Virus record (IMG/VR): IMGVR_UViG_3300046314_000298
Strand: one strand, 5' to 3'
Source of the DNA: an uncultured virus (IMG/VR IMGVR_UViG_3300046314_000298)
Taxonomy: Duplodnaviria > Heunggongvirae > Uroviricota > Caudoviricetes
DNA length: 64,000 bases
The notes under the pieces are model-generated. The model saw only the letters and a list, made by a program, of their open reading frames with translations. It was not told the origin of the DNA and did not search any database. Numbering within the stretch: position 1 is the first letter of the stretch; each line of letters opens with the position of its first letter. Made by a program: the position numbers and the translations under genes. Of the stretch, positions 40,100-55,644 are shown piece after piece.

Positions 40100-40376
40100 T
40101 TCTTTCTTTCTTTACAGGTTCTTCTACAAACAGTATATAGATGACTGCGTAGATAACTAATAACAAATTAAACAAAATGATCGTGGACACACCTGTCCAG
40201 AAGATCACAGCAGCCAAAGGCTGGTCTGGTGTATACCAGTGTGTGAACACAACACCAAAAGTCAGAATAAACACCACAAGTGCAATCAGCTTAATGTTAA
40301 CTGCTTTCTGATAGTGTTTATGGAAGACGTTATTTGGGTTATCTCTATAGCTTGAGCTTTCAAGATACTTGTTCAT
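40092..40376 (-). CDS. Hypothetical two-TM membrane protein
   Basis: Two hydrophobic helices. Confidence 0.6.
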   Translation of the reverse strand: MNKYLESSSYRDNPNNVFHKHYQKAVNIKLIALVVFILTFGVVFTHWYTPDQPLAAVIFWTGVSTIILFNLLLVIYAVIYILFVEEPVKKERND

Positions 40377-40879
40377 GATCTTATATAAGTTTTCATGTGT
40401 TTGTCAGCTATGTGTATAGTATCTAGTTGAATCCGTCTGGTGACATCATCTTCCATCACACACATAGCCTCGTGCATGTCTTTAACCTGATTGACTTCAG
40501 ACTCAGTGAATCTGTACCAATCAGGATTAGTTTCATGTTCAGAAGCTTTTACCACCAGCATGTTAAAGACAGCTTCTAGCTCATCTACAGTTTCTTGCAC
40601 ATAAACCACTTTAGCTATCTCTACCGCATGCTTGGTTCTAAAGGCTGCGTTATACCAATCAGTAGGTGTGCCTGTATTGGTTTCAAGAGCTTTGATGGTT
40701 AATTCAAAAACTCTTCTGATCTTATCCTTCAGTTCTTTAGGAACAGCAAAAACCACTGGGGTGTGGGTTTTGTATTTCTTTTTGACTTGAGGGCGTTGTT
40801 TGAGTTTAAGTTCTATTACCACGGCTAGGGATGAAGTTATCCAGATAGGTGTTGATGTAATAGGCTGCCTCAGCTGCAT
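40373..40879 (-). CDS. Hypothetical protein (start uncertain)
   Basis: 168 aa ORF overlapping the upstream ORF by 74 nt. Confidence 0.55.
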   Translation of the reverse strand: MQLRQPITSTPIWITSSLAVVIELKLKQRPQVKKKYKTHTPVVFAVPKELKDKIRRVFELTIKALETNTGTPTDWYNAAFRTKHAVEIAKVVYVQETVDELEAVFNMLVVKASEHETNPDWYRFTESEVNQVKDMHEAMCVMEDDVTRRIQLDTIHIADKHMKTYIRS

Positions 40880-41039
40880 CTTTACATCTCACGATGGAAG
40901 TAGACAGCCTGTACTTGAGAAATATCGTACCTGACTCAAGTATGGAAATACCTATAGGGCAGTTAACACCGTCCAGATTTGTTTCTTTGACAAACTTAGA
41001 AAGTCTGTTAACAGCTTTATCCAGTAAACCATCAGTCAT
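40806..41039 (-). CDS. Hypothetical protein
   Basis: 77 aa, ATGA coupling. Confidence 0.55.
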   Translation of the reverse strand: MTDGLLDKAVNRLSKFVKETNLDGVNCPIGISILESGTIFLKYRLSTSIVRCKDAAEAAYYINTYLDNFIPSRGNRT

Positions 41040-41557
41040 TTGACTTCCTTGAAACTAGCGATGAAATTCTTCATGCTCCCAGCAGGTGTGGTGTTTCCAG
41101 TCTGGACTTTAAACCCAACACGAAACTCTGACTCAAGACCTTTGCCAGAATCTACACGTTCAAGACAAAACATGTATAGGCCATGTTCATCAGCCACAGC
41201 GTCCAGAGCCATGGCTTGATCATGACAACTAACTGTCATGAAATATTCTTGAGGTGCTTGCCTTGCCAAAGCCAGACATAGGTTGAGTTGATTCTCACGC
41301 ATCTTGTTGACGTGTTCGTGAAATTCTTTCTTCAGGGTGCGCATCTCAGCTTTCAAAGCTTTGTTTTCTTCTTTGATAGCGTTGAGTTGTTTGTTCTCTT
41401 TCAGAACATCCTGAAGATCCAGGATCAGCTTAGCAATATTAGAAAAATCAAATTTTGAGGTTTGATCTTCCATAGCTACTGTAACGGCATTTTGAACTGC
41501 TGATTCATTAACCTGTTTCTTGGTAGCTGACTTCACAACTTTACTTTCATTCAACAT
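41036..41557 (-). CDS. Hypothetical coiled-coil protein
   Basis: 173 aa with conserved leader motif. Confidence 0.65.
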   Translation of the reverse strand: MLNESKVVKSATKKQVNESAVQNAVTVAMEDQTSKFDFSNIAKLILDLQDVLKENKQLNAIKEENKALKAEMRTLKKEFHEHVNKMRENQLNLCLALARQAPQEYFMTVSCHDQAMALDAVADEHGLYMFCLERVDSGKGLESEFRVGFKVQTGNTTPAGSMKNFIASFKEVK

Positions 41558-41600
41558 GATACATTCTTTCTTTAATGAGACAGGATTGTCAAGTAAAGTC
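41555..41600 (-). promoter_or_regulatory. Recurrent promoter/leader motif ACTTTACTTGACAATCCTGTCTCATTAAAGAAAGAATGTATCATG
   Basis: Related copies at about 31645-31690, 39860-39890, 43504-43550 and 50995-51040, each ending at a start codon. Confidence 0.65.
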
Positions 41601-41697
41601 TATATAACCGTAATTATTTACGAGGGTTTAATCAAATAGTAAACATCGTGAATAAAAAAATAAATATAGAACAGCCCTTGTGAGGCTGCTCTATATC

Positions 41698-41931
41698 TTA
41701 TCTGTCTAATTTCAAATCGATCAGCTTAGTCAGCTTATGGATAGTGTTATATCTGTCCATCTCATCATCGGTTATAAACACATCGAAATGTTGTTCTAAC
41801 TGCATGATGATCTCTACTCTATCCAGACTGGTTAATCCTACGTCACTATTTAGAACGGTATCTATTGTGACGTGTTGATTGGTAAACTCAGTCACGATCT
41901 GTTTTATTTCAGATTCTGTTGTTGTCCTCAT
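41698..41931 (-). CDS. Acyl carrier protein-like
   Basis: 77 aa, acidic; GLTSLDRVEIIMQLEQHFDVFITDDE matches the phosphopantetheine-site helix. Confidence 0.8.
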   Translation of the reverse strand: MRTTTESEIKQIVTEFTNQHVTIDTVLNSDVGLTSLDRVEIIMQLEQHFDVFITDDEMDRYNTIHKLTKLIDLKLDR

Positions 41932-41967
41932 GATACATCCTACGTTGATACATAGGATATTCAATCA

Positions 41968-42483
41968 TCACTTCTTACCACCGGTGATAAGCCTTGGGGA
42001 CCAACCCTTCTTAATCACAGTCTCTTCTGAAACTTTAAATTCTTCAGGTTCTTTTTCTTCAATGGCATGTTCATTAACAGTGGTGTGTTCGGTAAGCTTA
42101 TCCTTACCTGACTTCTCAGCTATTACTATCTTTGTAAGCTGGATGAAGAATGATGTAAAAGGATAGGGGATAACCGCATCTACATCTACATCAATAATAG
42201 CATCTATTTCGTCCAGAGAAATCATGATGTTTTCAGGCTTGCCGTTGAACCTGGCCTGAAAACTCAGATAATGTTCATAAACACCAAAATTGTGCACAGA
42301 CTCAGGTGATAGATTAAGAGTGATAACCCCTTCTTGACTTTTATGCTGCTCCAGGAAACCTGCATGGGTCTTAGGGCGATACCAGATATGTACACGATGA
42401 CCTTGCTCAGTCAACAAAGTGTAGCTGGATGCAAAGGCATCTGTTACAAGTTTTTTAACGTCAAGTTGAATTTGAACATTCAT
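41968..42483 (-). CDS. sspB: ClpXP adaptor SspB-like protein
   Basis: GVITLNLSPESVHNF, LSFQARFNG, acidic linker, C-terminal PRLITGGKK resembling the ClpX-binding tail. Confidence 0.75.
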   Translation of the reverse strand: MNVQIQLDVKKLVTDAFASSYTLLTEQGHRVHIWYRPKTHAGFLEQHKSQEGVITLNLSPESVHNFGVYEHYLSFQARFNGKPENIMISLDEIDAIIDVDVDAVIPYPFTSFFIQLTKIVIAEKSGKDKLTEHTTVNEHAIEEKEPEEFKVSEETVIKKGWSPRLITGGKK

Positions 42484-42676
42484 GATTTTGTTCCTTAGTT
42501 GGAAGTTGGTGATTGTGAGGGTTGAAGATGATGCCGTCGGTACGTTTAAGCCAGGCTACAGCAACATAGTTGACTTGAGGATAACCCCTTTGTGTGATGC
42601 CTGTAATAGTACCAGGTCCTACAGGACTATCTTCTATGGTATCGCCTATCTCAAGATATTCAGGGTTCATAGTCAC
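42461..42676 (-). CDS. Hypothetical protein
   Basis: 71 aa, coupled. Confidence 0.55.
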   Translation of the reverse strand: MTMNPEYLEIGDTIEDSPVGPGTITGITQRGYPQVNYVAVAWLKRTDGIIFNPHNHQLPTKEQNHECSNST

Positions 42677-43506
42677 ACTACTTTCATGACACGTTGAAAA
42701 ATGTAAAACTTTCTATCTGGAAACTTAATGCCCAAACGTTGAGCCTCAGTAAAAGCTTTCTTATATGTCAGATGAGTTGAGGGTTTTTCAGAAAATTGAT
42801 AACCGTTAAAATCTTCTGTTTTTTCTTTCAGCTTACTGGATATGACAAATATTCGTTTTCTTTTAAGACTGTTGGTATGGTCAAGAACCATATCTACTGT
42901 TTTACAGAAATTTAAATAGTGCTCATTAAGCTTGGTATTTTTGTAGTGTGTTCCAGTTTCGTTAAGCTGGATACCGTTTTCATCTAATAGATGCTGAAGG
43001 TTATTTTCAGCGTAGATGCTAAACATCTGTTGTTTAGTACCGGGCATGATACTTTCCTTTTTTGACGAAGTTTGATTTTTACATTCTTTTTCTGGCAGAT
43101 GTACACCATTTATGTACCAGTATTTTTCACCGCTGCGATTTTCGATAGCAGGTCCATCAATACGGTGAAGCATGCCGTGTCGATACCATAATTTATTACC
43201 ATCTATGCGCTCAACAGCTGATCCGTCTTCCCGATGACGCTCACCGTTCAGCCACCATTCACTATGACCATTCCGGCGATCGATAGCAGGACCATCTATT
43301 CGATGACGCTTCCCGTTCAGCCACCATTCTCTATCGCCGTTAGCGTACTCAACAGCAGGATCATCTAGACGATGTAGTATGTTGTCCAGATACCAAGCTT
43401 TATACCCATCCAAACGCTCAACGGTTGGACCATCTTCACGATGAAGCTTATCGTCTTTATACCAAACTACACTTCCATTTTCTTTTATGACTTTTCCATT
43501 TAACAT
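42673..43506 (-). CDS. Repeat protein (WxxxGxxHRxDGPAxE x5) with a separately initiated C-terminal domain
   Basis: Five 24-aa repeats; internal in-frame RBS and ATG at 43047. Confidence 0.7.
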   Translation of the reverse strand: MLNGKVIKENGSVVWYKDDKLHREDGPTVERLDGYKAWYLDNILHRLDDPAVEYANGDREWWLNGKRHRIDGPAIDRRNGHSEWWLNGERHREDGSAVERIDGNKLWYRHGMLHRIDGPAIENRSGEKYWYINGVHLPEKECKNQTSSKKESIMPGTKQQMFSIYAENNLQHLLDENGIQLNETGTHYKNTKLNEHYLNFCKTVDMVLDHTNSLKRKRIFVISSKLKEKTEDFNGYQFSEKPSTHLTYKKAFTEAQRLGIKFPDRKFYIFQRVMKVV

Positions 43507-43625
43507 GATACATTCTTTCTTTAATGGGACAGAATTGTCAGATAAAGTTTAAATGATTATAAATAACTAGGCAGCCTATTTGCTCTGTTCATAAAAAAAA
43601 CAGGACCCGAAGATCCTGTTTTATA

Positions 43626-44615
43626 TTAAGGTAAGAAATCACACTTCATCAACCTCAGAAACTTTTCAGTATCTGAGATAGGAAATGAGAACCCTGAAGC
43701 ATTTTTATGCCCACCGCCGCCGTTGTGTTTAGCTATAGCTGATACATCCACATCTCCAGCAGCGTTACTACGAAGAGAAACTATCACCAGATCTCTACCA
43801 GGGCTGACGATGAAGAAAGCACAAAACGCATACTCATCTTTAACAAGATCAGCCACGTTTGATACATACTTCATATCACAGTTCATAAGGGCTGCTTTAC
43901 CCAACTTGGTTTCCACAGGAGTAATAAGTCCTTTCAGACGCTCACATTCTGCTTCGTAGAAGTCAAGCTCCAATGCTGCTTTGGTCCAGACGGCTTTAAA
44001 TTCACTATCTGACATTTCAAAGATCTTGTCCCAAGCTTCAAATGTCATCTCAGCATTCAAAACTTTGTTCCAGATCTTTGTACCGTCCAATTTGAAAAGC
44101 CACAGATCACGATCTTCTACAGCCAACGCAGCATGGCGCAGTCTAGCAGGAACATCGATATCTTCAGAATCAATAGTTTCCAAAGCCAGACCAGCGCCTG
44201 AACGATTCTGGATAAGTTTAGTGAAGAACTTAACATCCTTCTCACAACAAATCAGGTCAGGTCTCTGCTCAAGACAAAGATGATTGACTGTCTTTAGTTT
44301 CTCTACGTCAGAAGCACCGTAGATATCAATCGCTGTCTTGTGGTGATCAAGAAACGCCAAACACTTGAGGTTTGGGGATTCGTTGACAATCTTAGCCAGA
44401 TCATCTTTGCTGTAAGAATAGTCGATAATCCAGAACTCTTCTGCGTCTGTAGACAAAGCCTCGTCACCATACTGCACTGGTGTGTACAGTACATCTAGAC
44501 CATCCAACTCAGCTTCCTGGCTTTTAAACCAATGTCTGAGTAGATAAGCAGACATAAAACCATCGGTACAGTTCTTGTGGTACCGAACTTCAACTTTCAT
44601 TTTTTCAGACATCAT
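43626..44615 (-). CDS. DHH/DHHA1 phosphoesterase (NrnB-like)
   Basis: YHKNCTDG, IDYS, LDHHKTA, DRDLW, SLRS, GGGGHKNASGF. Confidence 0.88.
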   Translation of the reverse strand: MMSEKMKVEVRYHKNCTDGFMSAYLLRHWFKSQEAELDGLDVLYTPVQYGDEALSTDAEEFWIIDYSYSKDDLAKIVNESPNLKCLAFLDHHKTAIDIYGASDVEKLKTVNHLCLEQRPDLICCEKDVKFFTKLIQNRSGAGLALETIDSEDIDVPARLRHAALAVEDRDLWLFKLDGTKIWNKVLNAEMTFEAWDKIFEMSDSEFKAVWTKAALELDFYEAECERLKGLITPVETKLGKAALMNCDMKYVSNVADLVKDEYAFCAFFIVSPGRDLVIVSLRSNAAGDVDVSAIAKHNGGGGHKNASGFSFPISDTEKFLRLMKCDFLP

Positions 44616-44760
44616 GATACTTTCTTAAGTAAAACAAAAACAATTGAAATGACACAACATGCGCAAAAGAACCCGAGACTCAGGTATTGCATAATGGAGA
44701 GTTCCCTACTCCACTTATCCAAATCCTCTTGTTCTTTCTTTGAAAGATTGCGGTAATCGT

Positions 44761-45174
44761 TCATTGGCTGAAGTCCGTTCTTGATTTGATCATGTTCTTT
44801 GCTGTATCATCATCTGCATTATACAGACGGTCGCAAAAGCACTTATCTATTTCATTCACGACTTTTTCCAATTTCACCCACTGATAAAAAGCTTGACCGT
44901 AGCGCAAAGTTTTACTATCGTGTCTGAAATCCTGAATGACAGAATTGCTAAACGTTAGGCGATCTGTATCACAAACAAAATCATCTTTGAGTTCAGAGAA
45001 ACGTTCGTGAGACAAACAGCGGAAATGTACATAGCGATTACCATTTCCGCTATCGTACCAAGCGGTAGTGCGAAGATGAATCAGATTTTCCACATCGTTA
45101 CAAACAGGACACAACACTTCTTCATTCACAGTCGCCATTTGACCTGTGAAAATTTCTCTTACAAATTCTTTCAT
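44761..45174 (-). CDS. Hypothetical protein
   Basis: 137 aa with AAGGAAGTATCATG start. Confidence 0.65.
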   Translation of the reverse strand: MKEFVREIFTGQMATVNEEVLCPVCNDVENLIHLRTTAWYDSGNGNRYVHFRCLSHERFSELKDDFVCDTDRLTFSNSVIQDFRHDSKTLRYGQAFYQWVKLEKVVNEIDKCFCDRLYNADDDTAKNMIKSRTDFSQ

Positions 45175-45189
45175 GATACTTCCTTTTGC

Positions 45190-45543
45190 TTAAACAGATT
45201 TATAACGAAGCAGATCCCAAATCTCTTCATCGGTGAGTATCTCATACTCTACCGGTGTGTTGATCTGAGCTTTGATCTTAGCATTTGATGTCCAGCAATT
45301 CTCTCGCTTGTGTTCATGGACACCAGGTCGTTGAAACTCAACAGCTGATTTGAGTTTCTTTTCATCGTAAATGATGGCTATCACACAGGACTTGCCGTGC
45401 GATATGTGTTTACCCGGACCTTTCTTCGACTTGCCAGAAATTCGATCAGCCCAACAAGCTGCCTCGTTGATATCCCTGGTTACAGTACCTGGCACAAAAC
45501 CAGGTTTCAAGAAAGATCGCAAGGTACCTTTATAGAATACCAT
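45190..45543 (-). CDS. Hypothetical protein (start uncertain)
   Basis: The longer ORF start crosses a terminator, so MVFYKGT is preferred. Confidence 0.5.
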   Translation of the reverse strand: MVFYKGTLRSFLKPGFVPGTVTRDINEAACWADRISGKSKKGPGKHISHGKSCVIAIIYDEKKLKSAVEFQRPGVHEHKRENCWTSNAKIKAQINTPVEYEILTDEEIWDLLRYKSV

Positions 45544-45854
45544 TTCATAATAACCCAATAAGTTATTGGCTTTTGGGTTTGGTTTACTTGATGAAATACC
45601 AAGTCTCAAATAAAGTAGATGTTGCCAAAAAAATTTACATAGCCTATACACCCGAGCCATATAGGCCGGGTGTATAGCTGTGTTTCATTTAACGTTTATA
45701 TAGACCAATAGGAATAAAACCATGACTATTCCTACAGCCAGTACAAATGACTGACCATCAAGAACTATGTCTTTATATTGATCTTCTTCAGTTTCATAAG
45801 CACTCAAGGTACTTATACCAGAAGCTTCATCTTTTTCATTGTTAAAAAACATGA

Positions 45855-46049
45855 TTATATTTCTGTTGATTTAACAATGATAGATAAGCCATCTGGATGA
45901 TAGCTGGAAGTGCTCTTACAAGCCATGTTGATAGATTCTTCTATAGATTCAAACAGAGGATGATTCTGTCTAAATCTAAGCTGTACGTGTTTCTCTTTAC
46001 CTTCGTCATTGACGATAGTTGTATTAAAGACTATTTCGTTACCGATCAT
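45855..46049 (-). CDS. Hypothetical protein
   Basis: 64 aa, ATGA coupling, GAGG RBS. Confidence 0.55.
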   Translation of the reverse strand: MIGNEIVFNTTIVNDEGKEKHVQLRFRQNHPLFESIEESINMACKSTSSYHPDGLSIIVKSTEI

Positions 46050-46270
46050 GATTTATCAAACCTCTTTTTTATCTCTCTAAAAACTACCATCGATAACACC
46101 AGAGCTGAAAATATATTCAGTAAAGGAGCTAAAGACACCACTATCAAAATACCACCTGTGGTAGCACTGAAGTCTACACCTCTCTCATCATAAAAAAGAT
46201 AAGCGCAGATAGCTGTTAGAACAAAACCAAAGATTACAAAAGTCAGATGTGTAGTTATAAGAAATTCCAT
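46046..46270 (-). CDS. Small two-TM membrane protein
   Basis: Start reassigned to MEFLITTH; the upstream extension overlaps structured RNA. Confidence 0.55.
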   Translation of the reverse strand: MEFLITTHLTFVIFGFVLTAICAYLFYDERGVDFSATTGGILIVVSLAPLLNIFSALVLSMVVFREIKKRFDKS

Positions 46271-46403
46271 TTTAATACCGTTGTTGTAGTTACAGTCAAA
46301 TAATTTCGGGTAAAAAAATAAGGGCGGGACAGTTTGTATCTGCTTGTGACAACCGAGTCTGGGTAGACTGATCACTTGCATCAACAAACTGTCCCTAATT
46401 AAG

Positions 46404-46504
46404 AACAAAGCCAACATGAATCGAACATGTTAAGTAAATATAACCTTCTACGCAGAATAGCACTGCTCCAGTTAATTTACTTGCCTCTACCAGACGGCTT
46501 TGTT
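46404..46504 (-). ncRNA. tRNA-like RNA with an extended anticodon-position arm
   Basis: AACAAAGCC/GGCUUUGUU end pairing, CUGGUAGAG D-loop-like segment, AACAUG-UUCGAUU-CAUGUU T-arm; no CCA. Confidence 0.65.
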
Positions 46505-47668
46505 TCTCTATTTATTACAAGATAGAGAAGGATGTGTCAGTCACCGCATCCAAGATATTTATAACACCGACTCGTGTTACCGGTTTGTCCAAACCTGGTG
46601 AAAGGATAAGCTACATCTGTTTAACTCAATCGCCACATACCCAGTAGTTCAGGTAAGGGTTAAGATGATTGTGCTATAATAAGCACAGAGCCTTAATACG
46701 ACAGTGTTTTAATTCATCAACATAACACTGAAGATACCCGAGTTCTCAATAGAGAATCTCGCTGTATTTTTGATGCCTAAGCACTCTAAAGCTATCTCTC
46801 CTAAAATAAGAGATAGCTTATAGGCTGCTCTCTGGGGTGATCAATCCCAAAGTTTACAACTTCCCAAAGATATCATTCATACAGTTCCCGACCAAGGGTA
46901 GTCTATATAAGAGATATCCATAGGGCGTACGATTTGGCGGTTGGTTAGACCACCTTCTACTCCTTAACAAAAAGTTAAAGGCAGGCTATTATCGTGAGCG
47001 CACCTCTTTCTATTACACACTTGTGATGTGTTTCGTCCTTGTGTTTAAAGCCTTAGGACTCATCAGATAGATAAGGCTCAAATGAAGTTTATGTGGCCTC
47101 ATTCTTTTATAAAGGGGTTTTCCCATAGCAGACTAAATGACTTCTGTCTATCTAATCTGCTACAGGCAAACACCTGAGTGCTAACTTGTTATCATATCAC
47201 AAAGGTAGATAACCACAACCTATTACAATAAAGACGTGTGAATCGCCTGCTTGCTTTGGCAAGAACAGCCCTCGAAGCTAGAGCCACATCAGGTCTGAAC
47301 AATCGTCAGAACACATGATCCCAGGGGATTTAAAAAGCATCAAACACAGTTCTGGGAAACTATGTGCTAGATCGACAGTTTATATTTTCCTTGTTTTATC
47401 AACTAAGTGAAAATACCGATCACTTTATACTGCTCCATCGTGCGTGTATTTTGTTATCACGCTAACGTCCCGATAGTACGTTTACCTAAGTTACCAATGG
47501 TCAATACCTGCACCCTAGCCTTACGCCCGCAAGCGATCTATTAACTTAACTCCGTAATCCGCAATGATATACGCACATTAAGAAATGTTTACACACTAGA
47601 TTTACTAAGCAGCGACTTGTTAGTTACCATTGATACGATCAAGTCTACTCCGGTTTACTTAGGTTAAA
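46505..47668 (-). ncRNA. ORF-free structured RNA tract (~1.15 kb) downstream of the tRNA cluster
   Basis: No ORF of 60 aa or more on either strand; many hairpins; contains a hammerhead ribozyme. Confidence 0.6.
47009..47079 (-). ncRNA. Type I hammerhead ribozyme, predicted cleavage between 47014 and 47013
   Basis: UCUAU-CUGAUGA-GUCCU..AGGAC-GAA-ACACAU-CACAA-GUGUGU-A-AUAGA: complete core, three stems, GUA site. Confidence 0.9.
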
Positions 47669-47736
47669 TGGTACCAGGAACGGGACTCGAACCCGTAAGA
47701 CCCTTGCGGAAGTATTAAGTTTTTAAAGTACATGGG

Positions 47737-48045
47737 TGGCCCGCTCCGGAATCGAACCGGAACGCCCCTTACGAAAGCGTCAGATTTTAAGTCTGATCTC
47801 TACCACTGCAGTTTTCACTGCCACTTTAGTGTGTTTGTGGTCTGGACTATCCCTTCAACTACATCCTAAATGTTTAGCTGGGCGATTATAGTCTCTGCAC
47901 GTCTTTCTATATTTCTATAGAAATTTCGCTCAGGATTGGCATCAGCAATTAACTGTTAAGCTTTCCCTGAATTTACGCCATTTTACTACATTATTTCTAA
48001 TGTAGGACACATCAAATATATGTCTACCTATTTCATCAGCGGGCC
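47737..48045 (-). tRNA. tRNA-Leu(UAA), exons 48045..48020 and 47797..47737, no encoded CCA
   Basis: GGCCCGC/GCGGGCC acceptor, UCAGA-CUUAAAA-UCUGA anticodon arm, long variable arm, UCCGG-UUCGAUU-CCGGA T-arm, A73. Confidence 0.88.
47798..48019 (-). ncRNA. Group I intron (222 nt) at tRNA-Leu position ~25/26
   Basis: P1 GACAU|AU..AUGUGUC with U-G; P10 AUCAGA/UUUGAU; terminal G; core AAAUUCAGGGAAA, GCCAAUCCUGAGC, GUGCAGAGACUA, GAAGGGAUAGUCC. Confidence 0.92.
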
Positions 48046-48056
48046 ACCCATGTACT

Positions 48057-48557
48057 CTATTTCTTTTCTAATCTGTAGTATTCTTTCTTTATTTCAGTTC
48101 TTTCGATGATCACGCCGCCATTTTGAACTTTGGCGCCATAAGAACCTGAACATTTTTTACTACAAAAAGGACCTGCTCTATTAGAAACATAATTAGTTAT
48201 CTGATTTTTACTAGGGGTAAATATTTCCTCACACCCAGCACACTTTACAGGATCCACCTTTACTCGTTTAGCGTCTTCACTTGCGTGAACAGGCAGTGTT
48301 TTAACAATAAGGTTATTTAGAGAATTATTGGTGAAATTTCTATCGTGATGGTCAACAGTCTCACCGTCTTTTAACTTTTGTTTTAATTCAATTTCTTTTA
48401 AAGCCTTGGGGTAAGAGATGGTTTTGGTCTTACCTTTAGTCCCCTTAGCAGCTTTTGAATTATTTAAAACAATATGCTGTCGACCATCACTTCTGTGATA
48501 AGGACCTAAGACGGATGTATATTCTGGATATAATCCAAGAAGTATTTGCTTATCCAT
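48057..48557 (-). CDS. Free-standing HNH endonuclease with C-terminal zinc-finger-like domain
   Basis: ETVDHHDRNFTNNSLNNL...H; CAGC...FCSKKC. Confidence 0.85.
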   Translation of the reverse strand: MDKQILLGLYPEYTSVLGPYHRSDGRQHIVLNNSKAAKGTKGKTKTISYPKALKEIELKQKLKDGETVDHHDRNFTNNSLNNLIVKTLPVHASEDAKRVKVDPVKCAGCEEIFTPSKNQITNYVSNRAGPFCSKKCSGSYGAKVQNGGVIIERTEIKKEYYRLEKK

Positions 48558-48652
48558 GTTTTCCCTTTACCGATTTGGGCATCCTGGTAATATCTATATC
48601 TCACGTTGCAGTCAGTTAGAATATTTATCACTAAATGATTCTAGAAAAGGAT

Positions 48653-48727
48653 TGGTGCCGGATGTCTGATTTGAACAGACGACCTATCGCTTACAAGGCG
48701 AGTGCTCTACCCCTGAGCTAATCCGGC
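48653..48727 (-). tRNA. tRNA-Thr(UGU), intronless
   Basis: GCCGGAU/AUCCGGC acceptor, CU UGU AA loop, GUUCAAAUC, CCA. Confidence 0.93.
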
Positions 48728-48789
48728 TTACTCTCCGCATTCTATTACAAACACGAATAAAAAAATACCCTGTTTGACCAGGGGTATTT

Positions 48790-49338
48790 TCAATTGATAC
48801 TATCGCCATTAAAGAAATTAGCTATGTGGTTATAGTGTTCTGTGATCTTGAGATTAAACACAGGTACATTATACAAACATGCCAAATCTATAGCGATCTT
48901 AGTACCGCCAGTTCTTGTACTCGTAGTCCCTCTACCTATATAACCATCTCTGGTATAACAGATAACGAACTTACTAGGATGACTCAAATCATTCCCTAAT
49001 ATCTGAAGTACATTTCTACCATAGAGCTTAAGAAGAGCTGGGGACAATTTATCCATGTAAGGACAAACGTTCTCCAGGATTCTGTAAGCTTCGTTTGGTA
49101 TGTGATATTGATAATCTAAATCGTTGAAGCCTTTCCAGGGTAGATAGATTTCACAATTCAGTTTATTTCTAACACCTTGGTAGAACGCTGAGTCTGCTCC
49201 TTCAGCACCACCTGAACGCAAGATGTATTGCTTCTGCTCTAGAAGAGCAGCTACTTTAGTCATAGCGTCCAGATAGAACTGAGGAGTATCTCTGTTACCT
49301 ATACCTGTGTAGGTACGGTTACTGAGTAGATCAATCAT
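48790..49338 (-). CDS. SLOG/DprA-like nucleotide-binding protein
   Basis: YTGIGNRDTP, LRSGGAEGADSAF, RNVLQILG, GGT. Confidence 0.75.
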   Translation of the reverse strand: MIDLLSNRTYTGIGNRDTPQFYLDAMTKVAALLEQKQYILRSGGAEGADSAFYQGVRNKLNCEIYLPWKGFNDLDYQYHIPNEAYRILENVCPYMDKLSPALLKLYGRNVLQILGNDLSHPSKFVICYTRDGYIGRGTTSTRTGGTKIAIDLACLYNVPVFNLKITEHYNHIANFFNGDSIN

Positions 49339-49990
49339 GACCTTCGATCTTCATCAGGATACTGGCTTGAACCATGTCGATAGAACCGTGACAATCTATC
49401 TTGATGATTTTACCATAGTAGTTATCTGGAAGTTCATTACACAGCTTAGTCACTTTAGACATGAGAGTGCTATTAGCTTCATGGACATCTTGCTTCTTGT
49501 CTGTGTAATCACGCTGACCTTTTTGAAGTACTCGTTCAGCAGCTACTTCTTCTGACAGAGTAAGTACAAAGGTGATGTCAGCTGGTCTGAGTGCTGAGTG
49601 CACATACTCAGAATATTCAGTATACTTTTTCATGTATATAGCATCTTCAGGGTGCTCAGCCAAAGCTTGTTGATACAGAATGTTAGACAAGATGTACCTG
49701 TCTAATACCACGTAATCATTTTCTAACAGAGCCTGTTCGATTACTTTTTTGTGAGCTGCGCGATCAGCTGTGTAAAGATCGGAGATTTCTGTTCTGGACA
49801 GATCTTTACCTTCTCCGTTAAGGTAAGCTGCGATGCACTTACCTGTATCAGATTGATATTGAGGGTAACCAGACAGAAAAACCTTCAAGCCAAGCTTAGA
49901 CATATTCTCAGCCAAAAGCTTAGCTTGAGTAGCTTTACCCACGCCATCGATACCTTCGATAGCGATCAACTTCCCGATCTTACTGCTCAT
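49331..49990 (-). CDS. tmk: Thymidylate kinase
   Basis: IEGIDGVGKATQ P-loop, ADR, LDRY..SN. Confidence 0.88.
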   Translation of the reverse strand: MSSKIGKLIAIEGIDGVGKATQAKLLAENMSKLGLKVFLSGYPQYQSDTGKCIAAYLNGEGKDLSRTEISDLYTADRAAHKKVIEQALLENDYVVLDRYILSNILYQQALAEHPEDAIYMKKYTEYSEYVHSALRPADITFVLTLSEEVAAERVLQKGQRDYTDKKQDVHEANSTLMSKVTKLCNELPDNYYGKIIKIDCHGSIDMVQASILMKIEGHD

Positions 49991-50591
49991 TGATTTGTCC
50001 TTTAACAAAGTTGCGTGCTATGAATTCATCTTCGTGTTCTGAAATAGCAGAGAGAAGAATATTCCTCAGAAGCATAGGGCTTTCTGCTGTATAGACCTTT
50101 TCAACCATATCAAAGAACCCACTTGTGGAAAGCTTATGATGTAACTGTTCAGAATTTGTAAACTCTGGATTTTCCCAGTTATTATCCACAACTTTCTTTT
50201 TGTACTCATTACAGACCAAGAAGTTATAACGTTGGTAAGGTGACAGGTCCATGATGGGGAGTATACCTGATTTGGTATGATTTTCCCATGAGTTCATGTT
50301 GACCCACTTAGTGACTGAGAAAGTCACTTTGGTCTCACCAGTGATCCAGTCAAAGACATGATACAAAGGTGCGCCTTTGTGGTCTGTATGAACATGAGTC
50401 ACGAAACCAACTAAGGGATCTTCCCACGCATCAGACTGATGATACACAGGCATGTAAAGCATATCCATAGCCAGAGTAGCAGCTACAATATCCTTACGGG
50501 ACTGAGTCTCAGTTCGTTCATGCATGACCCCATATTGCTTCCAATCAGCAAGCAGACGATCGAACGATGATTTCAGCATTATTTTGATCAT
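49980..50591 (-). CDS. Hypothetical protein
   Basis: 203 aa, coupled. Confidence 0.65.
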   Translation of the reverse strand: MIKIMLKSSFDRLLADWKQYGVMHERTETQSRKDIVAATLAMDMLYMPVYHQSDAWEDPLVGFVTHVHTDHKGAPLYHVFDWITGETKVTFSVTKWVNMNSWENHTKSGILPIMDLSPYQRYNFLVCNEYKKKVVDNNWENPEFTNSEQLHHKLSTSGFFDMVEKVYTAESPMLLRNILLSAISEHEDEFIARNFVKGQINEQ

Positions 50592-50592
50592 G

Positions 50593-50997
50593 TTACTTTC
50601 CTTTTTTGATGATAGCCACGGTACGATCCATGACCAGGGTTTTGCTGTTGTTTGTGTGATAAAACAAACGCCAGCGAGTCGCTAACACTTTATTGTCCTT
50701 CATAACACGCATGTGTTTATCCGTAAAAGCTTTAGCAGGTTCTTCTGAAACCAGTTCAAGTCTCTTACTTTTATCAGAACGTGTCTGATTGAAGTTACTT
50801 AAAACCATGACGTCATATGTTCCATGCTGCCACAGCAATTCGTGAAACATACTTTCCATAGTTATCAACTCAGTCCTGAATTCTTCCTCAGACTGAAAGA
50901 CTTCAGCGATGTCCTCAAAATCCATTAAGGAGATGGTTTTGACAAAAGGGCTGTCAACCATCTCTTCTAACAGTTTAGTTTTCTCTGCGATACCCAT
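50593..50997 (-). CDS. Hypothetical protein
   Basis: Start reassigned to MGIAEK after the AAGGAAAGTATCATG motif. Confidence 0.65.
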   Translation of the reverse strand: MGIAEKTKLLEEMVDSPFVKTISLMDFEDIAEVFQSEEEFRTELITMESMFHELLWQHGTYDVMVLSNFNQTRSDKSKRLELVSEEPAKAFTDKHMRVMKDNKVLATRWRLFYHTNNSKTLVMDRTVAIIKKGK

Positions 50998-51109
50998 GAT
51001 ACTTTCCTTTTTTAAAGTTGAAATACTGTCAAGTAAAGTAAATAGGATCAAAAAATTATACACAGGCTGAAAAAAAATCCCCTCAGCTTTTGGCCTTGGG
51101 GATTCTCTG

Positions 51110-51364
51110 TCATGCCGTTGCCTTGATAGGCTCGACGTCATGGAAATACGATACTTCCATGATGATATCGCACGCGGCGAACTGACCCTTGATAGAAGGA
51201 TCAGCCTTGAGACTTTCTTCAAAGTCTTTGATTAAGAGAGCGTCGACCCTCTTATCCTTAGACAATGAAGAACACATGCGCGCTATCTTTCGCGCTCGCT
51301 GGACCAGCTCAGTAGCCAAACGAGCCAGCTCAATATTGAGCTGTTGCGAAGAAAGTTCTTTCAT
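51110..51364 (-). CDS. Hypothetical protein
   Basis: AAGGAG RBS before MKELSS; own promoter motif and terminator. Confidence 0.6.
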   Translation of the reverse strand: MKELSSQQLNIELARLATELVQRARKIARMCSSLSKDKRVDALLIKDFEESLKADPSIKGQFAACDIIMEVSYFHDVEPIKATA

Positions 51365-51436
51365 GTTGTCTCCTTGATGTTTTAAACCACCTGACATCTA
51401 CAGGTTTTCCCAAGATCGGGAACGAACTAGCGATAT

Positions 51437-51473
51437 AGCTCAAGTTAAGTATATGTCATTGAAATCTTTTACA
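51437..51473 (-). promoter_or_regulatory. Putative phage promoter TGTAAAAGATTTCAATGACATATACTTAACTTGAGCT
   Basis: 35/37 identical copy at 61417-61453; related copies near 7720, 12535, 22860 and 25270. Confidence 0.7.
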
Positions 51474-51550
51474 AAGATAGTCGGGTTTAAAAGATACACA
51501 GAGCCTTACGGCTCTGTGTATCTTAAGCTCTCAGACTCTCACGAGTCAGA

Positions 51551-52123
51551 TTACCACTGCTCAGCCAGCATCTGGGGAGCAACAGGCAGACCGTTATACA
51601 ACAGGTTGCCGGTGTCGTCGCTCAACAGATCCAGCACAGCGATGTTAGCGTGTGCATGGCGCTTAGCCACGGCATCGTCAATGTCAGCCACCAAAGAGGT
51701 AGGCTTATTAGCGATAGAAGCCCACTCCAGGACCACATCCAGCGACTCATGTTCGCTGATCTTAGCCCAGGCCATGCCAACTGGATCATACACGTAAGTG
51801 GCAGCGCCGATCAACACGGTGGTGTCAGCAGTAGCGTCCAACACCAAAGCCATCGTAGCGATGCTAGGTGCCAGAGCGTCACGAGCGGTGATGTCTGCAA
51901 CGACCTTCAGTGAAGAAGCAGCAGCCAGACCAGTGGTGATCTTACCGTCGACCATTGTCTCCAGTTCAGCAAACGTAGGTACGTGCTTAGCAGCGGTACC
52001 GGTGCTGTCGGAAACATAGATGTTAACGTCGTCGGTACGAACGGCGTCAGCAACCAAATACAGAGTAGAAGCTTCCAGTACGCCTGGCAGAGCTGTTACT
52101 TTACTAATTTTCAATTGTGCCAT
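51551..52123 (-). CDS. Putative virion/fibre-associated structural protein
   Basis: Ala-rich, WASIANKP and KRHAHAN motifs; strong codon bias; N-terminus paralogous to 53318..53890. Confidence 0.65.
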   Translation of the reverse strand: MAQLKISKVTALPGVLEASTLYLVADAVRTDDVNIYVSDSTGTAAKHVPTFAELETMVDGKITTGLAAASSLKVVADITARDALAPSIATMALVLDATADTTVLIGAATYVYDPVGMAWAKISEHESLDVVLEWASIANKPTSLVADIDDAVAKRHAHANIAVLDLLSDDTGNLLYNGLPVAPQMLAEQW

Positions 52124-52244
52124 GTTAGGCTCCTATGAAGTTAAAGAGGAAATGAATACCTGAACTAGGTCGAGATCTTGATACTATTATCTATAGAACT
52201 CTTTTAAGTAACCATGTTCCATATCATTGAGATAAGAATATTCC

Positions 52245-52472
52245 TCAAAAGCAATAAGCTTTAGGTTTAGACTTCTGTAACAATGTTAAGGAGTTAGGTG
52301 CGCCTATATACTTTACTGGTATTCTAACAGAACCTGGACCGCCTATCATAGACCCAGCTGCGATAACAGATTGACTGGGTGAGAAAGGCTGTAGGTTATT
52401 GGTAAGGGTAGAGAATTTTCCAGATGTTTGGTTTACGCTACCAGTTGTTTCTAAAAAGGATACAAAGGCCAT
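52245..52472 (-). CDS. Small hypothetical protein in the structural operon
   Basis: 75 aa, GGAG RBS. Confidence 0.55.
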   Translation of the reverse strand: MAFVSFLETTGSVNQTSGKFSTLTNNLQPFSPSQSVIAAGSMIGGPGSVRIPVKYIGAPNSLTLLQKSKPKAYCF

Positions 52473-52475
52473 ATG

Positions 52476-53321
52476 TCACTCCCAAAGAAGTGCGCATGTG
52501 AACTGTGAGTTTAGGTTAGCAAAAGGATCATCCGCCACAGAAATGTACGTTCTAGTTACAGTACCCACAGGTTTGTAAGAAAAGATAGTACCTTTAGGCG
52601 CTTCACTAACACAGACACCGCACATACCAATAAACGGAACAACTTCAGGCACATTCAAGAAAGATTGATATGCCTGATATTCAGCACTTGTGGTCAAAGT
52701 AGTAGGTGGAAGTCCTGGTAAACACCCATAGCCTACTAAGTGTCTATCGTAAGCTGTGTTTGTGGAGATGCGAACCGATTGCAAACCACCACCAATAGGG
52801 ATTAAGGATCCATAACCTACAGTGCTAATAGCTCCAGAAGCATCTACAGTTTTAGTGCAATTATAAATGCCTATAGGAGATGTTCCATTGGAACCAGTAG
52901 AGGCAAATATTAAGGTAAAGTGATAGCTAGTTACACTGATATAAGTCAAATGCAATTGACTTATGCTAGTGACAGGACGATTATGCGCCACAGCTGTTTG
53001 AGCTGAAATGGCACCAGTGATGGTGCCGGTGCCACTACTACCTGTACCAGAAGTAATAAAAATCAAAGGGTAATCAAGAGCAGCGCCACTGCCGTATTCT
53101 ATTTTAAAAAAGATAGAACTGTCCGGAAGTTTCCAAATTTCATAACCCGCAGCTGTGTTTATAACACTTGGTCTATTGACTGTTGTCCAGTTAATCTGAC
53201 CCGTATCTGTGGTTTTGATAAGTCCAGCTGCTGTAAGATTGGAGCTAAGGCCTGATCCCCAAGCTCTAAACCCCGCAGATGTATTATGATTAACTACCGC
53301 TGAATAATTTAAAGTTGTCAT
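52476..53321 (-). CDS. Putative virion structural protein
   Basis: 281 aa, G/S/T-rich beta composition, coupled. Confidence 0.6.
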   Translation of the reverse strand: MTTLNYSAVVNHNTSAGFRAWGSGLSSNLTAAGLIKTTDTGQINWTTVNRPSVINTAAGYEIWKLPDSSIFFKIEYGSGAALDYPLIFITSGTGSSGTGTITGAISAQTAVAHNRPVTSISQLHLTYISVTSYHFTLIFASTGSNGTSPIGIYNCTKTVDASGAISTVGYGSLIPIGGGLQSVRISTNTAYDRHLVGYGCLPGLPPTTLTTSAEYQAYQSFLNVPEVVPFIGMCGVCVSEAPKGTIFSYKPVGTVTRTYISVADDPFANLNSQFTCALLWE

Positions 53322-53890
53322 GTAACTATTTCCACAAAGATTCTGATTGACGTGAAGTTGGTATTTGAATCCAATTTAAATCTAAGCACATCACCAGCCA
53401 AGACGTTTTTATTCCAACCGGTTAAAACTAGATCTTTTAACTTATAGCCGTTAGTGATAATGACTGGATTACCACCTAAGATACTATCTGCTATTACAGG
53501 CGGATAATTATCCACTGTGCTTTTCCAGATATCCATGCTTAGGGATCCAGGACCGCCTTCTGTAAGAATGACAATAGATTTAATCACACCTGTAGATTTA
53601 CAGACAGTTGTAGGCATGTCTACTTCTAAAGGATCCAACAGAACTCCGTTATTTGTCCATCCGGCACCCACCATGTAGGTATTACTAGAGGTAGCTATAA
53701 TAGCAGAGTTTACATAAGCTATGATGTCGCCATAGTTCAATAAACTTTTTACAGCAGTACCATCTAGATTACTCACCTTCAGTTCTAGATCATTAGGTCG
53801 ATCTATGTCTGAAGATGGTAATAAATACATGGTAGATGGCGTTAGAACAGCAGGTAGTTGGGTAACTTTACTGACGTTCAATTTTGCCAT
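53318..53890 (-). CDS. Putative virion structural protein
   Basis: MAKLNVSKVTQLPAVLTPSTMYL paralogous N-terminus. Confidence 0.6.
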   Translation of the reverse strand: MAKLNVSKVTQLPAVLTPSTMYLLPSSDIDRPNDLELKVSNLDGTAVKSLLNYGDIIAYVNSAIIATSSNTYMVGAGWTNNGVLLDPLEVDMPTTVCKSTGVIKSIVILTEGGPGSLSMDIWKSTVDNYPPVIADSILGGNPVIITNGYKLKDLVLTGWNKNVLAGDVLRFKLDSNTNFTSIRIFVEIVT

Positions 53891-53900
53891 AAACTATCCT

Positions 53901-55007
53901 TTACCACTGAATGTCACCAATGGTGACGGCGTTAAGCACACCACCTAAACCCATAGCGTTGACAATAGTCTCTACTTGGGTTTGCAGATTTGGAACTGTA
54001 AGTTCAGAAGTGATAGCTGTTTGCAAGCCTTGGATCTGGGTAGCCGTGTGTGCGTGTGGTAATACATCATGGACACCAGAAGTGGCATTCATGAATGTAT
54101 CGACATCACGCATGATCACAGACAGAGCTGCATTAAAGTCAGTGACTTGTGCTGCCGTATGCGTGTGAGCGACTGAAGCCAAATTCATAGTAGAAACGAT
54201 AGCCTGAACTTCAGAAGCGAAATTCAAGAGATCGGTTACACTATGTTGGTGGCTTGTATTTGCTTTACCAGCTACAGTAGTTTGCAAAGCTGTGATCAGA
54301 GTGCCTAATGCAGTAACATCTGAATTATTGGCTTTACCACCTAGAGTAGCAGTAAGGTTGTTAATCTCAGAGATTTCATGTGTGTGACCCACACTAGAGA
54401 AACTAGCGATTGCGTTTGTGATCAGAGCCTGAACAAAAGCCGTCAAACCAGAAATTTCACCAGCTGTATGTGTGTGGTTAACGTCAGCTTTACCGGTAAT
54501 TTGACTGGCTACATACAGATCAAGACCTGTTATGTCTGTAGTACCGTGGCTATGCACTGCAGCTGCTTTGGTGGCAAGAGCTGTGTTGATGTTAGTCACC
54601 ACAGTCGCCAGACTGTTCAGATCTGCTGCATTGGCCTTATCGGCCAGAGCAGTGACTAATCCCACCACCTCTGTGAGTTGATGAGTATGACCTGCTGCTG
54701 ACAGAGTAGCTGCTAATGCAGTTAACTGATCGGTAATATACTGCACCAGCCCTGGCACATCTGCCATGGCGTGAGTATGGCCCATATTAGATTTACCTGC
54801 CAGTGCGGCTTGGGTAGCCGTAGAGATAGGTTTATCTGCGTCTGAAGTATTATTGACAAGATCCAGTCCCAGATCAGTTTTAGTGATCAGAGACTTGATA
54901 GCGTTCAAAGTGACACGGTGGTTGACACCACCGATGGCTACTACAGTTTGCTCAAGACCTGATGGGGTCGTAAGCATCAGAAATTCACTGATTTTTTTAC
55001 TAGGCAT
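53901..55007 (-). CDS. His-repeat tail fibre-like protein
   Basis: About eight HxH-xxx-(D/E)(I/V)xGL repeats; GLDLVNNTSDADKPISTA. Confidence 0.75.
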   Translation of the reverse strand: MPSKKISEFLMLTTPSGLEQTVVAIGGVNHRVTLNAIKSLITKTDLGLDLVNNTSDADKPISTATQAALAGKSNMGHTHAMADVPGLVQYITDQLTALAATLSAAGHTHQLTEVVGLVTALADKANAADLNSLATVVTNINTALATKAAAVHSHGTTDITGLDLYVASQITGKADVNHTHTAGEISGLTAFVQALITNAIASFSSVGHTHEISEINNLTATLGGKANNSDVTALGTLITALQTTVAGKANTSHQHSVTDLLNFASEVQAIVSTMNLASVAHTHTAAQVTDFNAALSVIMRDVDTFMNATSGVHDVLPHAHTATQIQGLQTAITSELTVPNLQTQVETIVNAMGLGGVLNAVTIGDIQW

Positions 55008-55050
55008 AATAACCTCTTTGTTAGTGACTTAGTCAGTCATAGCATGACCG

Positions 55051-55644
55051 TTAAGTCAATGTGCTATAATTTACCTGTAAACGATTACTTGTACCCATAC
55101 CTGCTGAGACAAGTCTTTTGACATTACTAGGTAAGGCCATAAGATTTCTCTCTATTTCATAACGTTCTCTTTGTTGTCTGTAGCACAAAGCACCTGCCTT
55201 GATATAAAACAAAAGAACATCTGAAGTAGAAGCAGACTTGACTCGTTTATCGTCTAAGGTCAATAGAGGAGATGTGGCTCCTGGTATGACCATGGTATTC
55301 TGAGCAGAGATAGTGCTGTCAAAGAACCAGAACTTACAGATGGTATCAGATATATAAGCTACCTGAGGTCTTGCTAATTGATCAAAAGCAAAAGACAATT
55401 CTCTAATATTACTATCAGAGAAAAGAAGACTTGGATTAGACTGATTATCTACCGAAGCTAAGAAAGCTGATAAACCATCTGTCCAGACTCGCCAAGGCTT
55501 AAACATCAATCCTTTTGAAAGATCGGTTAAGCTGGCTGGTCCTATTTCAAAGTCTTCTTTGTTATGTCTTCTGATATTGTTATCCGGAGCAAGCACACTG
55601 GAAACTATGGTGGTGGAGTTAAACAGTATGTTGTCAGGTAGCAT
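55051..55644 (-). CDS. Putative tail protein
   Basis: 197 aa; FAFDQ, LDDKR, SDVLLFY, YRQQRERY motifs; within the fibre operon. Confidence 0.6.
   Translation of the reverse strand: MLPDNILFNSTTIVSSVLAPDNNIRRHNKEDFEIGPASLTDLSKGLMFKPWRVWTDGLSAFLASVDNQSNPSLLFSDSNIRELSFAFDQLARPQVAYISDTICKFWFFDSTISAQNTMVIPGATSPLLTLDDKRVKSASTSDVLLFYIKAGALCYRQQRERYEIERNLMALPSNVKRLVSAGMGTSNRLQVNYSTLT

Follow-up and report, generated by a model that had tools for sequence, protein, structure and literature searches.

To our knowledge, the catalogued group I introns of bacterial and organellar tRNA genes all lie in the anticodon loop, and in the Anabaena tRNA intron pairing of the two exons through the anticodon stem is said to be required. 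The largest survey tested only eight anticodon-loop positions, the sole other site that it names being the T-loop of tmRNA, and gives the four classical bacterial tRNA intron types as IC3 (Williams, 2020; 10.1101/2020.01.27.920355). For phages, the available portion of the review by Hausner et al. (2014; PMC3984707) places all of the group I introns then known in protein genes. The preprint on Lak megaphages, in the passages available, states that phage tRNA introns were previously unreported and describes one 'enigmatic' insert that encodes a tRNA (10.1101/356790), and the accessible portion of a 2025 review of nucleus-forming phages leaves tRNA introns in these phages unmentioned. Mobile endonucleases have been described at comparable places. 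In collaborative homing, as given in the available part of its description, the free-standing endonuclease F-CphI is encoded beside the intron-containing psbA gene of cyanophage S-PM2, and the intron stops self-cutting (PMC6083498). SegB of phage T4 is, in the accessible part of the report, a homing endonuclease encoded in a cluster of tRNA genes (PMC2330249).

Here we describe a phage locus in which a group I intron interrupts a tRNA-Leu(UAA) gene outside the anticodon loop. It was found in the window, by which we mean the whole stretch of 64,000 nucleotides analysed, taken from IMG/VR record IMGVR_UViG_3300046314_000298 of an uncultured virus of the Caudoviricetes. The literature searched, with subscription journals largely outside its coverage, contained no tRNA with a group I intron off the anticodon loop, and within that literature such a site is not described before; a sequence-only reading of the same DNA had already called a site near 25/26 at least rare. 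The explanation that we consider best overall, to which we would give a probability of roughly 70%, is a working, ORF-less intron at position 25/26 that was retargeted to this site and that sits in an HNH cassette overwriting the resident tRNA-Leu(UAA) gene.

Results

Genomic context

The virus record that contains the window spans 72.7 kb and has a completeness rating of 27%. Its genes include those for chimallin, an RNA polymerase subunit and a family B DNA polymerase of divergent sequence, so that the phage is likely to be a nucleus-forming jumbo phage. Five group I introns in the phage record score above the Rfam cut-off, and one further intron falls just under it.

A group I intron between nucleotides 25 and 26 of tRNA-Leu(UAA)

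The interrupted gene, referred to below as the inner tRNA, consists of three parts:

48020..48045, minus strand: 5' exon of the inner tRNA-Leu(UAA), made up of the acceptor strand and a complete D arm (D stem A10-U25), its last bases being GACAU (from the sequence and from ARAGORN after in-silico splicing)
47798..48019, minus strand: group I intron of 222 nt, ORF-less (from the RF00028 match, structure and covariation, and homologues at the same site)
47737..47797, minus strand: 3' exon of the inner tRNA-Leu(UAA), with A26, the complete anticodon arm (UAA), a long variable arm, the T arm, the acceptor strand and the discriminator A (from the sequence and from ARAGORN after in-silico splicing)

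The gene is interrupted between nt 25 and 26, where the D stem meets the anticodon stem. The 5' exon, whose 26 nt form the start of a type-II tRNA, terminates at 48020 in ...GGUAGACAU, and the 3' exon begins with AUCAGA at 47797 and extends to the discriminator A at 47737. The anticodon arm, UCAGA-CUUAAAA-UCUGA (47796..47780), has a perfect 5-bp stem. The insertion is thus at 25|26 and at none of the eight anticodon-loop positions. The anticodon stem lies with both its strands in the 3' exon and so does not pair the two exons in the precursor.

P1 comprises 7 bp (48024-48018 with 48012-48006), with a U48020·G48010 wobble at the 5' splice site, and P10 comprises 6 bp in the window (47797-47792 with 48016-48011). 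The internal guide of the intron occupies 48016-48006, and the terminal intron base is G47798. The match to RF00028 (48029..47821) extends over the full model (1-253) with 59.7 bits and an E-value of 1.3e-12 for the window, the gathering score being 50 bits, and the alignment includes the core segments P, Q, R and S. Folding of the precursor (48065..47720) gave -126.8 kcal/mol (z -10.1); P1, P2, P6a, P8 and P9 all appear in this fold, as do a 22-bp terminal helix and the three arms of the tRNA that belong to the 3' exon. The sequence-only reading had proposed an intron with the same limits in tRNA-Leu(UAA), outside the anticodon loop, together with a 7-bp P1 holding the U-G pair, a 6-bp P10, a terminal G and an intact anticodon arm lying entirely in the 3' exon; the limits hold, and each of these elements was found.

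Homologues at the same site and covariation

The same intron, at the same site, is present in three further contigs:

L081, metagenome contig: intron at 2039-2257
L088, IMG/VR contig: intron at 1158-1379
L072, metagenome contig: partial copy, the contig ending 65 nt into the intron

Against RF00028 the two other full copies, those of L081 and L088, score 65.6 and 66.1 bits. The U·G wobble at the 5' splice site is found in 4/4 copies and the terminal G in all three full ones, and P3, P4, P6, P7 and P8 are paired in all copies. P10 has only 2-3 bp in L081 and L088, compared with 6 bp in the window. The P1-P10 structure was drawn by hand from the window sequence and scored on an alignment of only four rows (A3), in which 96.0% of 225 cells are paired, compared with 29-48% with slid partners, and 15 of 71 pairs show changes on both sides. 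Because the structure was drawn from the window sequence, the slid control favours it on the percentage paired and not on the double changes. None of 500 shuffles reached any of five pairing measures. The stems of the host tRNA behave similarly, the acceptor and anticodon stems varying in sequence between copies with their pairing kept.

With blastn, the region 47600-48200 had no match among 50,697 phage records, and megablast of 40000-60000 returned a tRNA match only. An exact 24-mer was absent from the viral contigs, a 20-mer and a gapped pattern had 0 matches in 185,579 species genomes, and the gapped pattern applied to viral contigs recovered solely the contig of L088 again. Scanning 16 of the 64 parts of the viral collection for the motif of the 5' half gave at least 121 loci. 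By a simple stem test, 103 of the 121 are uninterrupted tRNAs (69 UAA, 16 UAG and 3 CAA, the remaining anticodon calls being possible misparses), 17 were classed as 'other' and one was too short. Fifteen of the 17 'other' loci were run against Rfam, with group I matches only in L140 and L175, both at the classical site; no new 25/26 intron appeared among the 121 motif loci from these 16 parts. The 25/26 intron lineage is small and rare, with four instances.

The same 5' half is present in 68 uninterrupted phage tRNA-Leu(UAA) genes with full flanks, and in 35 of these the base after GACAU is A. The best uninterrupted genes show 80-85% identity to the spliced products and are collinear with them over the predicted junction, and for this reason the predicted spliced product looks like a common natural phage tRNA.

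Assignment of the interrupted tRNA

In the raw window, the inner tRNA-Leu gene was not called by ARAGORN, and the Rfam tRNA model gave only a partial match of 23.4 bits, bearing out the earlier expectation that ordinary tRNA finders would miss the gene. After in-silico removal of 48019..47798, ARAGORN called tRNA-Leu(taa), and the same call was obtained for the spliced products of the window, L081 and L088 (3/3). With introns allowed, which in ARAGORN means in the anticodon loop only, the program returned a forced tRNA-Asp(atc) with a 216-nt intron, and the insertion would then lie in the anticodon loop of a different tRNA. That model, however, has just two D-stem pairs and two mismatches in its anticodon stem, makes a variable arm of the perfect UCAGA/UCUGA hairpin with its CUUAAAA loop, and leaves the U·G wobble and P10 unexplained, and L081 and L088 both favour the 25/26 reading over it. 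With its D stem and anticodon stem broken, the tRNA-Asp(atc) reading of the inner gene was rejected, and we give it practically no credence.

An HNH cassette nested in a resident tRNA-Leu(UAA)

The inner tRNA is itself enclosed by the two parts of another tRNA-Leu(UAA) gene, the outer or resident gene, together with an endonuclease gene:

48653..48727, minus strand: intact tRNA-Thr(UGU), just upstream (context)
48562..48588, minus strand: 5' half (nt 1-26) of the outer tRNA-Leu(UAA), severed by the cassette (from the intact homologue L001:2440-2528 and alignment)
48057..48557, minus strand: free-standing gene for an HNH endonuclease of 166 aa (P0001), whose C terminus holds a zinc ribbon with four cysteines (from the translation, an HNH_3 score of 20.2 bits and the family alignment)
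47669..47723, minus strand: 3' remnant of the outer tRNA-Leu (from alignment to L001)
47703..48560, minus strand: 858-bp cassette of HNH gene, intron-bearing tRNA-Leu and flank (from blastn of the window against L001)

The close relative L001, with flanks 94% identical to those of the window, has the outer gene intact as tRNA-Leu(UAA), without the intron and without the HNH gene. In the window, 858 bp (48560..47703) stand in place of 27 bp of the L001 tRNA-Leu(UAA); the cassette has overwritten the middle of the resident gene. On the 3' side, 47702-47669 (the end of the variable arm, the T arm, the acceptor strand and CCA) is homologous to L001, the T arm, complementary acceptor strand and CCA of the outer gene lying at 47696..47669, and 47723-47703 is a remnant that was carried in with the cassette. 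On the 5' side, the outer half stands directly before the HNH ATG, and the HNH ORF stops 11 nt before nt 1 of the inner tRNA. Neither the HNH cassette nor the second, split tRNA-Leu(UAA) around the inner gene was mentioned in the sequence-only reading.

The nesting is repeated in L003 and L081 within other outer tRNAs, the halves of which have pairing acceptor strands; in L072 only the outer 5' half is seen, the contig ending before the 3' side. Trial joins of the outer halves in the window (5' ends 48575-48531 by 3' starts 47760-47701, 2700 joins) gave 39 ARAGORN calls, all with poor anticodon stems. An outer tRNA that can still be spliced was rejected, as none of the 2700 joins had a good anticodon stem, and on the same grounds we regard the outer gene as a relic that the inner gene replaces.

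Against Pfam PF13392 (HNH_3), P0001 scores 20.2 bits, under the cut-off of 24.8, and the model is matched by 18 of 30 aligned relatives (E <= 0.01; best 1.1e-8). D69, H70, N82 and the four cysteines are invariant in the P0001 family, and H91 is nearly invariant in alignment A1 and invariant in A2. The family has 147 relatives, encoded next to tRNA-Leu genes or within them in the tRNA clusters of phages; these relatives gave 69 viral and 16 metagenome loci, and P0001 alone as the locus query gave no result. Other layouts among the loci have the HNH relative inside a classical intron, before an intron-less replacement tRNA-Leu, or after intact tRNA-Leu genes. The second of these layouts is found in Salmonella phage PVP-SE1, where the 5' half of a tRNA stands ahead of an unannotated HNH ORF. 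A promoter scan gave 6 sites, compared with 4.4 +/- 2.1 in shuffles.

Relation to introns at the classical site

Within the loci of the HNH relatives, 21 distinct group I introns were mapped at the classical site of tRNA-Leu(UAA). Their 5' exons end in GACUU, their terminal base is G and their 3' exons start with AAAAUC (CUU|AAAA), and in most of the 21 an HNH ORF follows the 5' splice site and precedes the guide sequence. The nearest relatives found for the window intron are phage tRNA-Leu(UAA) introns at CUU|AAAA, and the 3' ends of the window intron and of the classical-site introns are alike. In a tree of the last 215 nt, unrooted (midpoint only) and with an unresolved backbone, the introns of L081, L088 and the window fall into a single clade (100/99) among the 21 classical-site introns. 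The new 5' exon end, GACAU, is one base apart from the classical GACUU, and the CAU D-stem strand is present in 2 of the 21 classical hosts and also in many uninterrupted phage tRNA-Leu genes.

Since the three full introns form one clade among 21 classical ones, the 25/26 site is probably derived and arose when a classical intron was retargeted, the word 'derived' resting, with the tree unrooted and its backbone unresolved, on 21 classical introns against 3. The ancestors of the ribozyme would have been introns at the classical U34|A35 of phage tRNA-Leu(UAA), and it would have been retargeted once to the look-alike GACAU, 9 nt upstream, with the guide changed to match. Reverse splicing or recombination may have provided the route.

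Predicted splicing and a leader-trailer helix

The sequences flanking the inner tRNA can pair with one another:

48046..48059, minus strand: leader strand of a 14-bp leader-trailer helix, overlapping the HNH stop codon (from pairing and the minimum-free-energy fold)
47724..47737, minus strand: trailer strand of the same helix, beginning at the discriminator base (from pairing and the minimum-free-energy fold)

Beyond the acceptor stem, this helix has 14, 14, 15 and 13 bp in the window, L081, L088 and L003, respectively, and the helix sequences of the four are unrelated. By comparison, 12 tRNAs with a classical-site intron show 0-1 bp of such pairing, and tRNA-Leu(UAA) genes that lack an intron and neighbour an HNH relative show 0-2 bp (18 resolved of 20).

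From the anatomy of the intron we infer that it is spliced, and we propose the following course. P1 would form between the internal guide and the 3' strand of the D arm (GACAU), and because P1 takes up this strand, the D stem would have to be open in the precursor. Free guanosine would then attack after U48020, P10 would align A26 to nt 31, and G47798 would leave as the exons join. The acceptor stem, lengthened to about 21 bp by the leader-trailer helix, would hold the exons instead of the anticodon stem. With the D stem opened by P1 and the anticodon stem wholly in one exon, the leader-trailer helix is the obvious candidate for an exon clamp; it could alternatively be a processing site for a double-strand-specific RNase.

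The stretch is contained in 24 runs, all labelled freshwater metagenome, of which three are RNA libraries. No spliced joint across the intron was present in contigs from the three RNA libraries or from a DNA run. One contig of an RNA library (47879-48093) continues unspliced over the 5' splice site and could represent either RNA of the precursor or DNA carried over. As rare forms are lost from contigs and the libraries may contain DNA, the RNA-library contigs decide nothing on splicing. Three observations count against the predicted splicing, namely that no joint was seen, that P10 is short in L081 and L088, and that P1 needs an open D stem.

The lack of spliced RNA in those contigs, the competition between P1 and the D stem and the want of a precedent for a 25/26 site in the literature searched would also suit a decayed intron in a tRNA-Leu pseudogene, the cassette having merely destroyed the tRNA-Leu(UAA) of the phage. 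Set against such decay, three diverged full copies hold the core above the Rfam cut-off, the U·G wobble, the terminal G and all helices are kept through the 15 double changes, and the exons keep a canonical cloverleaf with paired changes. In L081, moreover, it is the protein gene that has decayed and the RNA that is intact. We therefore regard a relic as very improbable and retain the working intron at 25/26.

Discussion

The position of the cassette and of the intron suggests how the two may act together. The HNH enzyme would cut uninterrupted tRNA-Leu genes near GGUAGAC, at about nt 26, and repair of the break would copy the cassette into the cut gene. The cassette would at the same time supply a new tRNA-Leu(UAA) in which the intron divides the target sequence, and the whole process would amount to collaborative homing on a tRNA. 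We put this logic of cutting, copying and target splitting at just short of even odds.

Several observations bear on it. The window cassette has its left junction at nt 26/27, a single base away from where the intron is inserted. Where inner tRNAs retain the motif GGUAGACAU, they are interrupted 0-6 nt after it in 4/4 cases, at 25/26 in the window, L072 and L081 and at 31/32 in L003, the L003 site being taken from the ARAGORN exon model only, with A as its -1 base and no convincing P1. The 25/26-type and L003 introns are unrelated. By contrast, a different D arm is present in 6/6 of the inner tRNAs that lack an intron and stand next to close HNH relatives. The pattern of motif and intron, taken together with the junction position, fits collaborative homing, in which an intron blocks self-cutting by a free-standing endonuclease. 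Counting against the immunity step are L088, where the intron-bearing tRNA belongs to an ordinary tRNA cluster that has no HNH gene close by, the score of P0001 below the HNH_3 cut-off, and cassette left junctions that vary from the D loop (L081, L084) through nt 26 (window, L003, L072) and nt 31 (L073) to nt 34 (L075).

Some of these points would be met equally by an intron that is real and splices at 25/26 and that is a neutral passenger, giving no shielding from the HNH enzyme, with the HNH gene and the tRNA merely travelling together. The intron would have jumped to the look-alike GACAU, for example by reverse splicing into the tRNA followed by recombination. The one-base distance between GACAU and the classical GACUU agrees with such a jump, as do the intron and tRNA of L088 in their HNH-free cluster, the differing junctions of related cassettes, and L081, where the HNH reading frame is broken and the intron and tRNA are intact. 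A passenger would not, however, be expected to show the interruption of all four motif-keeping inner tRNAs within 0-6 nt by two unrelated introns, the altered motif in all six intron-less partners, or the window junction one base from the intron site. We consider neutrality unlikely, if well within the range of serious explanations.

In its fullest form, the homing proposal describes a composite selfish element on phage tRNA-Leu(UAA), in which the HNH enzyme would cut the resident gene and the gene would be overwritten with the HNH gene and an uncuttable replacement tRNA-Leu. The intron would be the immunity device, moved from the anticodon loop onto the sequence that the enzyme targets, the shift of site would be an adaptation and no accident, and the helix would be a clamp for the exons. 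This we put forward tentatively, and would sooner bet against it than for it. If it is true, the new site would depend for its function on the leader-trailer helix, which would take over from the anticodon stem in clamping the exons.

The locus suggests that a group I ribozyme can apparently use another part of the tRNA body, and that a target differing by one base would be enough for the predicted move. Because the tools for finding such genes look only in the anticodon loop, surveys are blind to them. The case offers a test bed for how a group I intron holds its exons without the host helix, the leader-trailer helix being the candidate, and for whether an intron can shield a replacement gene carried by a homing endonuclease. 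The layout of HNH gene plus replacement tRNA extends to cultured phages, Salmonella phage PVP-SE1 being one example.

Among known systems, the tmRNA T-loop introns (10.1101/2020.01.27.920355) are, like the window intron, group I introns in a tRNA-like fold off the anticodon loop. The tmRNA host, however, has no anticodon arm and its site is in the T loop, whereas the window site is at the junction of the D and anticodon stems. Lak megaphages likewise have a phage tRNA gene split by an insert that holds a tRNA; the available text on them gives no ribozyme class, endonuclease or mechanism for the insert, and the likeness is one of description only.

SegB resembles the HNH gene of the window in being an endonuclease gene among phage tRNA genes and, in the accessible part of its description, recognises a tRNA gene sequence and carries neighbouring tRNAs with it. 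Unlike the window enzyme, it is of the GIY-YIG type, lies between tRNA genes and recognises the T-arm motif, with neither an intron nor a nested tRNA in the parts available. The F-CphI/psbA system, as far as the available account goes, is similar in that a free-standing endonuclease gene adjoins an ORF-less group I intron in its likely target, and in that close relatives differ by presence or absence, as L001, without the 858-bp unit, differs from the window. The target in the window is instead a tRNA and not a protein gene, and the enzyme is HNH and not Endo VII-like. The window unit, unlike the cyanophage one in the portion described, is nested in a destroyed second copy of its target and brings a replacement gene, its cutting and protection being predicted only.

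The classical-site tRNA-Leu introns share with the window intron the isoacceptor, the RF00028 family, the U·G wobble at the 5' splice site and the terminal G. The 14-bp leader-trailer helix of the window is without counterpart in 12 classical-site hosts. In the window the anticodon arm is all in the 3' exon, so that the exons do not pair via the anticodon stem, unlike those of the classical-site hosts. The guide of the classical-site introns pairs with the anticodon stem and loop (GACUU), whereas that of the window is predicted to pair with the D arm (GACAU).

Endonuclease insertions and split tRNA genes in related phages

The tRNA-Thr gene is intact in the window but interrupted within its D loop in L001, the 94%-identical relative (L001:1852-2339), by an insert of about 490 bp with a different HNH-like ORF; ARAGORN found no replacement tRNA in this insert. 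Endonuclease insertions therefore distinguish the two relatives at two separate places, in adjacent tRNA genes. An RNA-library contig (run X15) joins a 3' end resembling the family of the 25/26 intron, the group I intron between nucleotides 25 and 26 of the inner tRNA-Leu (window 47833), through 28 other letters to the tRNA-Thr gene, entered at the anticodon loop (window 48694). In a relative from the same habitat, tRNA-Thr may be interrupted by a group I intron.

Five further contigs (L102, L112, L118, L129 and L134, around 700-800) share a tRNA-Leu 5' half ending GACAU, after which the sequence forms no anticodon arm and does not reach Rfam's cut-off for group I introns; these are additional split or rearranged tRNA-Leu genes. 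Directly 3' of the tRNA-Leu with the 25/26 intron in L088, a tRNA-like 5' half is followed by approximately 100 nt of other sequence and then a T arm and acceptor strand (L088:1480-1660). This may be a further tRNA gene with an interruption, though of another type.

Phage type and other RNA features of the window

The window phage is likely a nucleus-forming jumbo phage, because a chimallin family protein is encoded in the window. Beyond the 25/26 intron there are five group I matches, all on the minus strand, four above the cut-off of 50 bits and one at 49.1 bits; both tandem pairs are spaced by about 80 nt, and the second has a PP-loop ATPase ORF (33935-34573) downstream of it.

Features of the window
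4771-5098, minus: group I match, between two ORFs for an RNA polymerase Rpb2-like subunit (3777-4667 and 5131-5928)
17206-17498 and 17577-17887, minus: tandem group I matches
20887-22755, minus: chimallin family protein (PF25677, E 1.2e-34)
25350-27473: divergent family B DNA polymerase
34664-34917 and 34998-35217, minus: tandem group I matches
46418-47669, minus: 1.25 kb after the tRNA cluster, without any ORF of at least 40 aa
47010-47070, minus: type-I hammerhead-like core (CUGAUGA...GAAA...UA)
58930-59022, minus: tRNA-Met call (ARAGORN, 93 nt)

The ORF-less stretch may be a large structured RNA. Its mismatches with L001 are bunched, leaving identical blocks of 168, 131, 108, 106 and 103 nt, and the hammerhead-like core, complete by reading of the sequence, falls within the 106-nt block; in Rfam this core scored just 16.1 bits (E 2.1, cut-off 34). 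The tRNA-Met call is probably false, lying inside a phage-tail-repeat ORF (57949-59493) and giving no match to the Rfam tRNA model at its cut-off.

HNH and tRNA-Leu arrangements without the intron

One viral contig encodes an RNase P RNA of bacterial class A (L018:3024-3362, 253.8 bits), about 900 bases downstream of an HNH homologue. In another contig (L075:400-1164), the outer tRNA-Leu is broken precisely at the classical anticodon-loop intron site, between UUU and AAAA, and keeps an intact 3' half; the insert lacks a ribozyme and contains an HNH gene together with a whole tRNA-Leu(UAA) that has no intron. The layout of the window's HNH cassette, minus the intron, is present in a cultured phage, Salmonella phage PVP-SE1 (NC_016071.1; L090:1140-1720). 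There the 5' half of a tRNA, with acceptor strand and D arm, leads straight to the ATG of an HNH homologue that lacks annotation, followed 3' by the annotated tRNA-Leu gt020.
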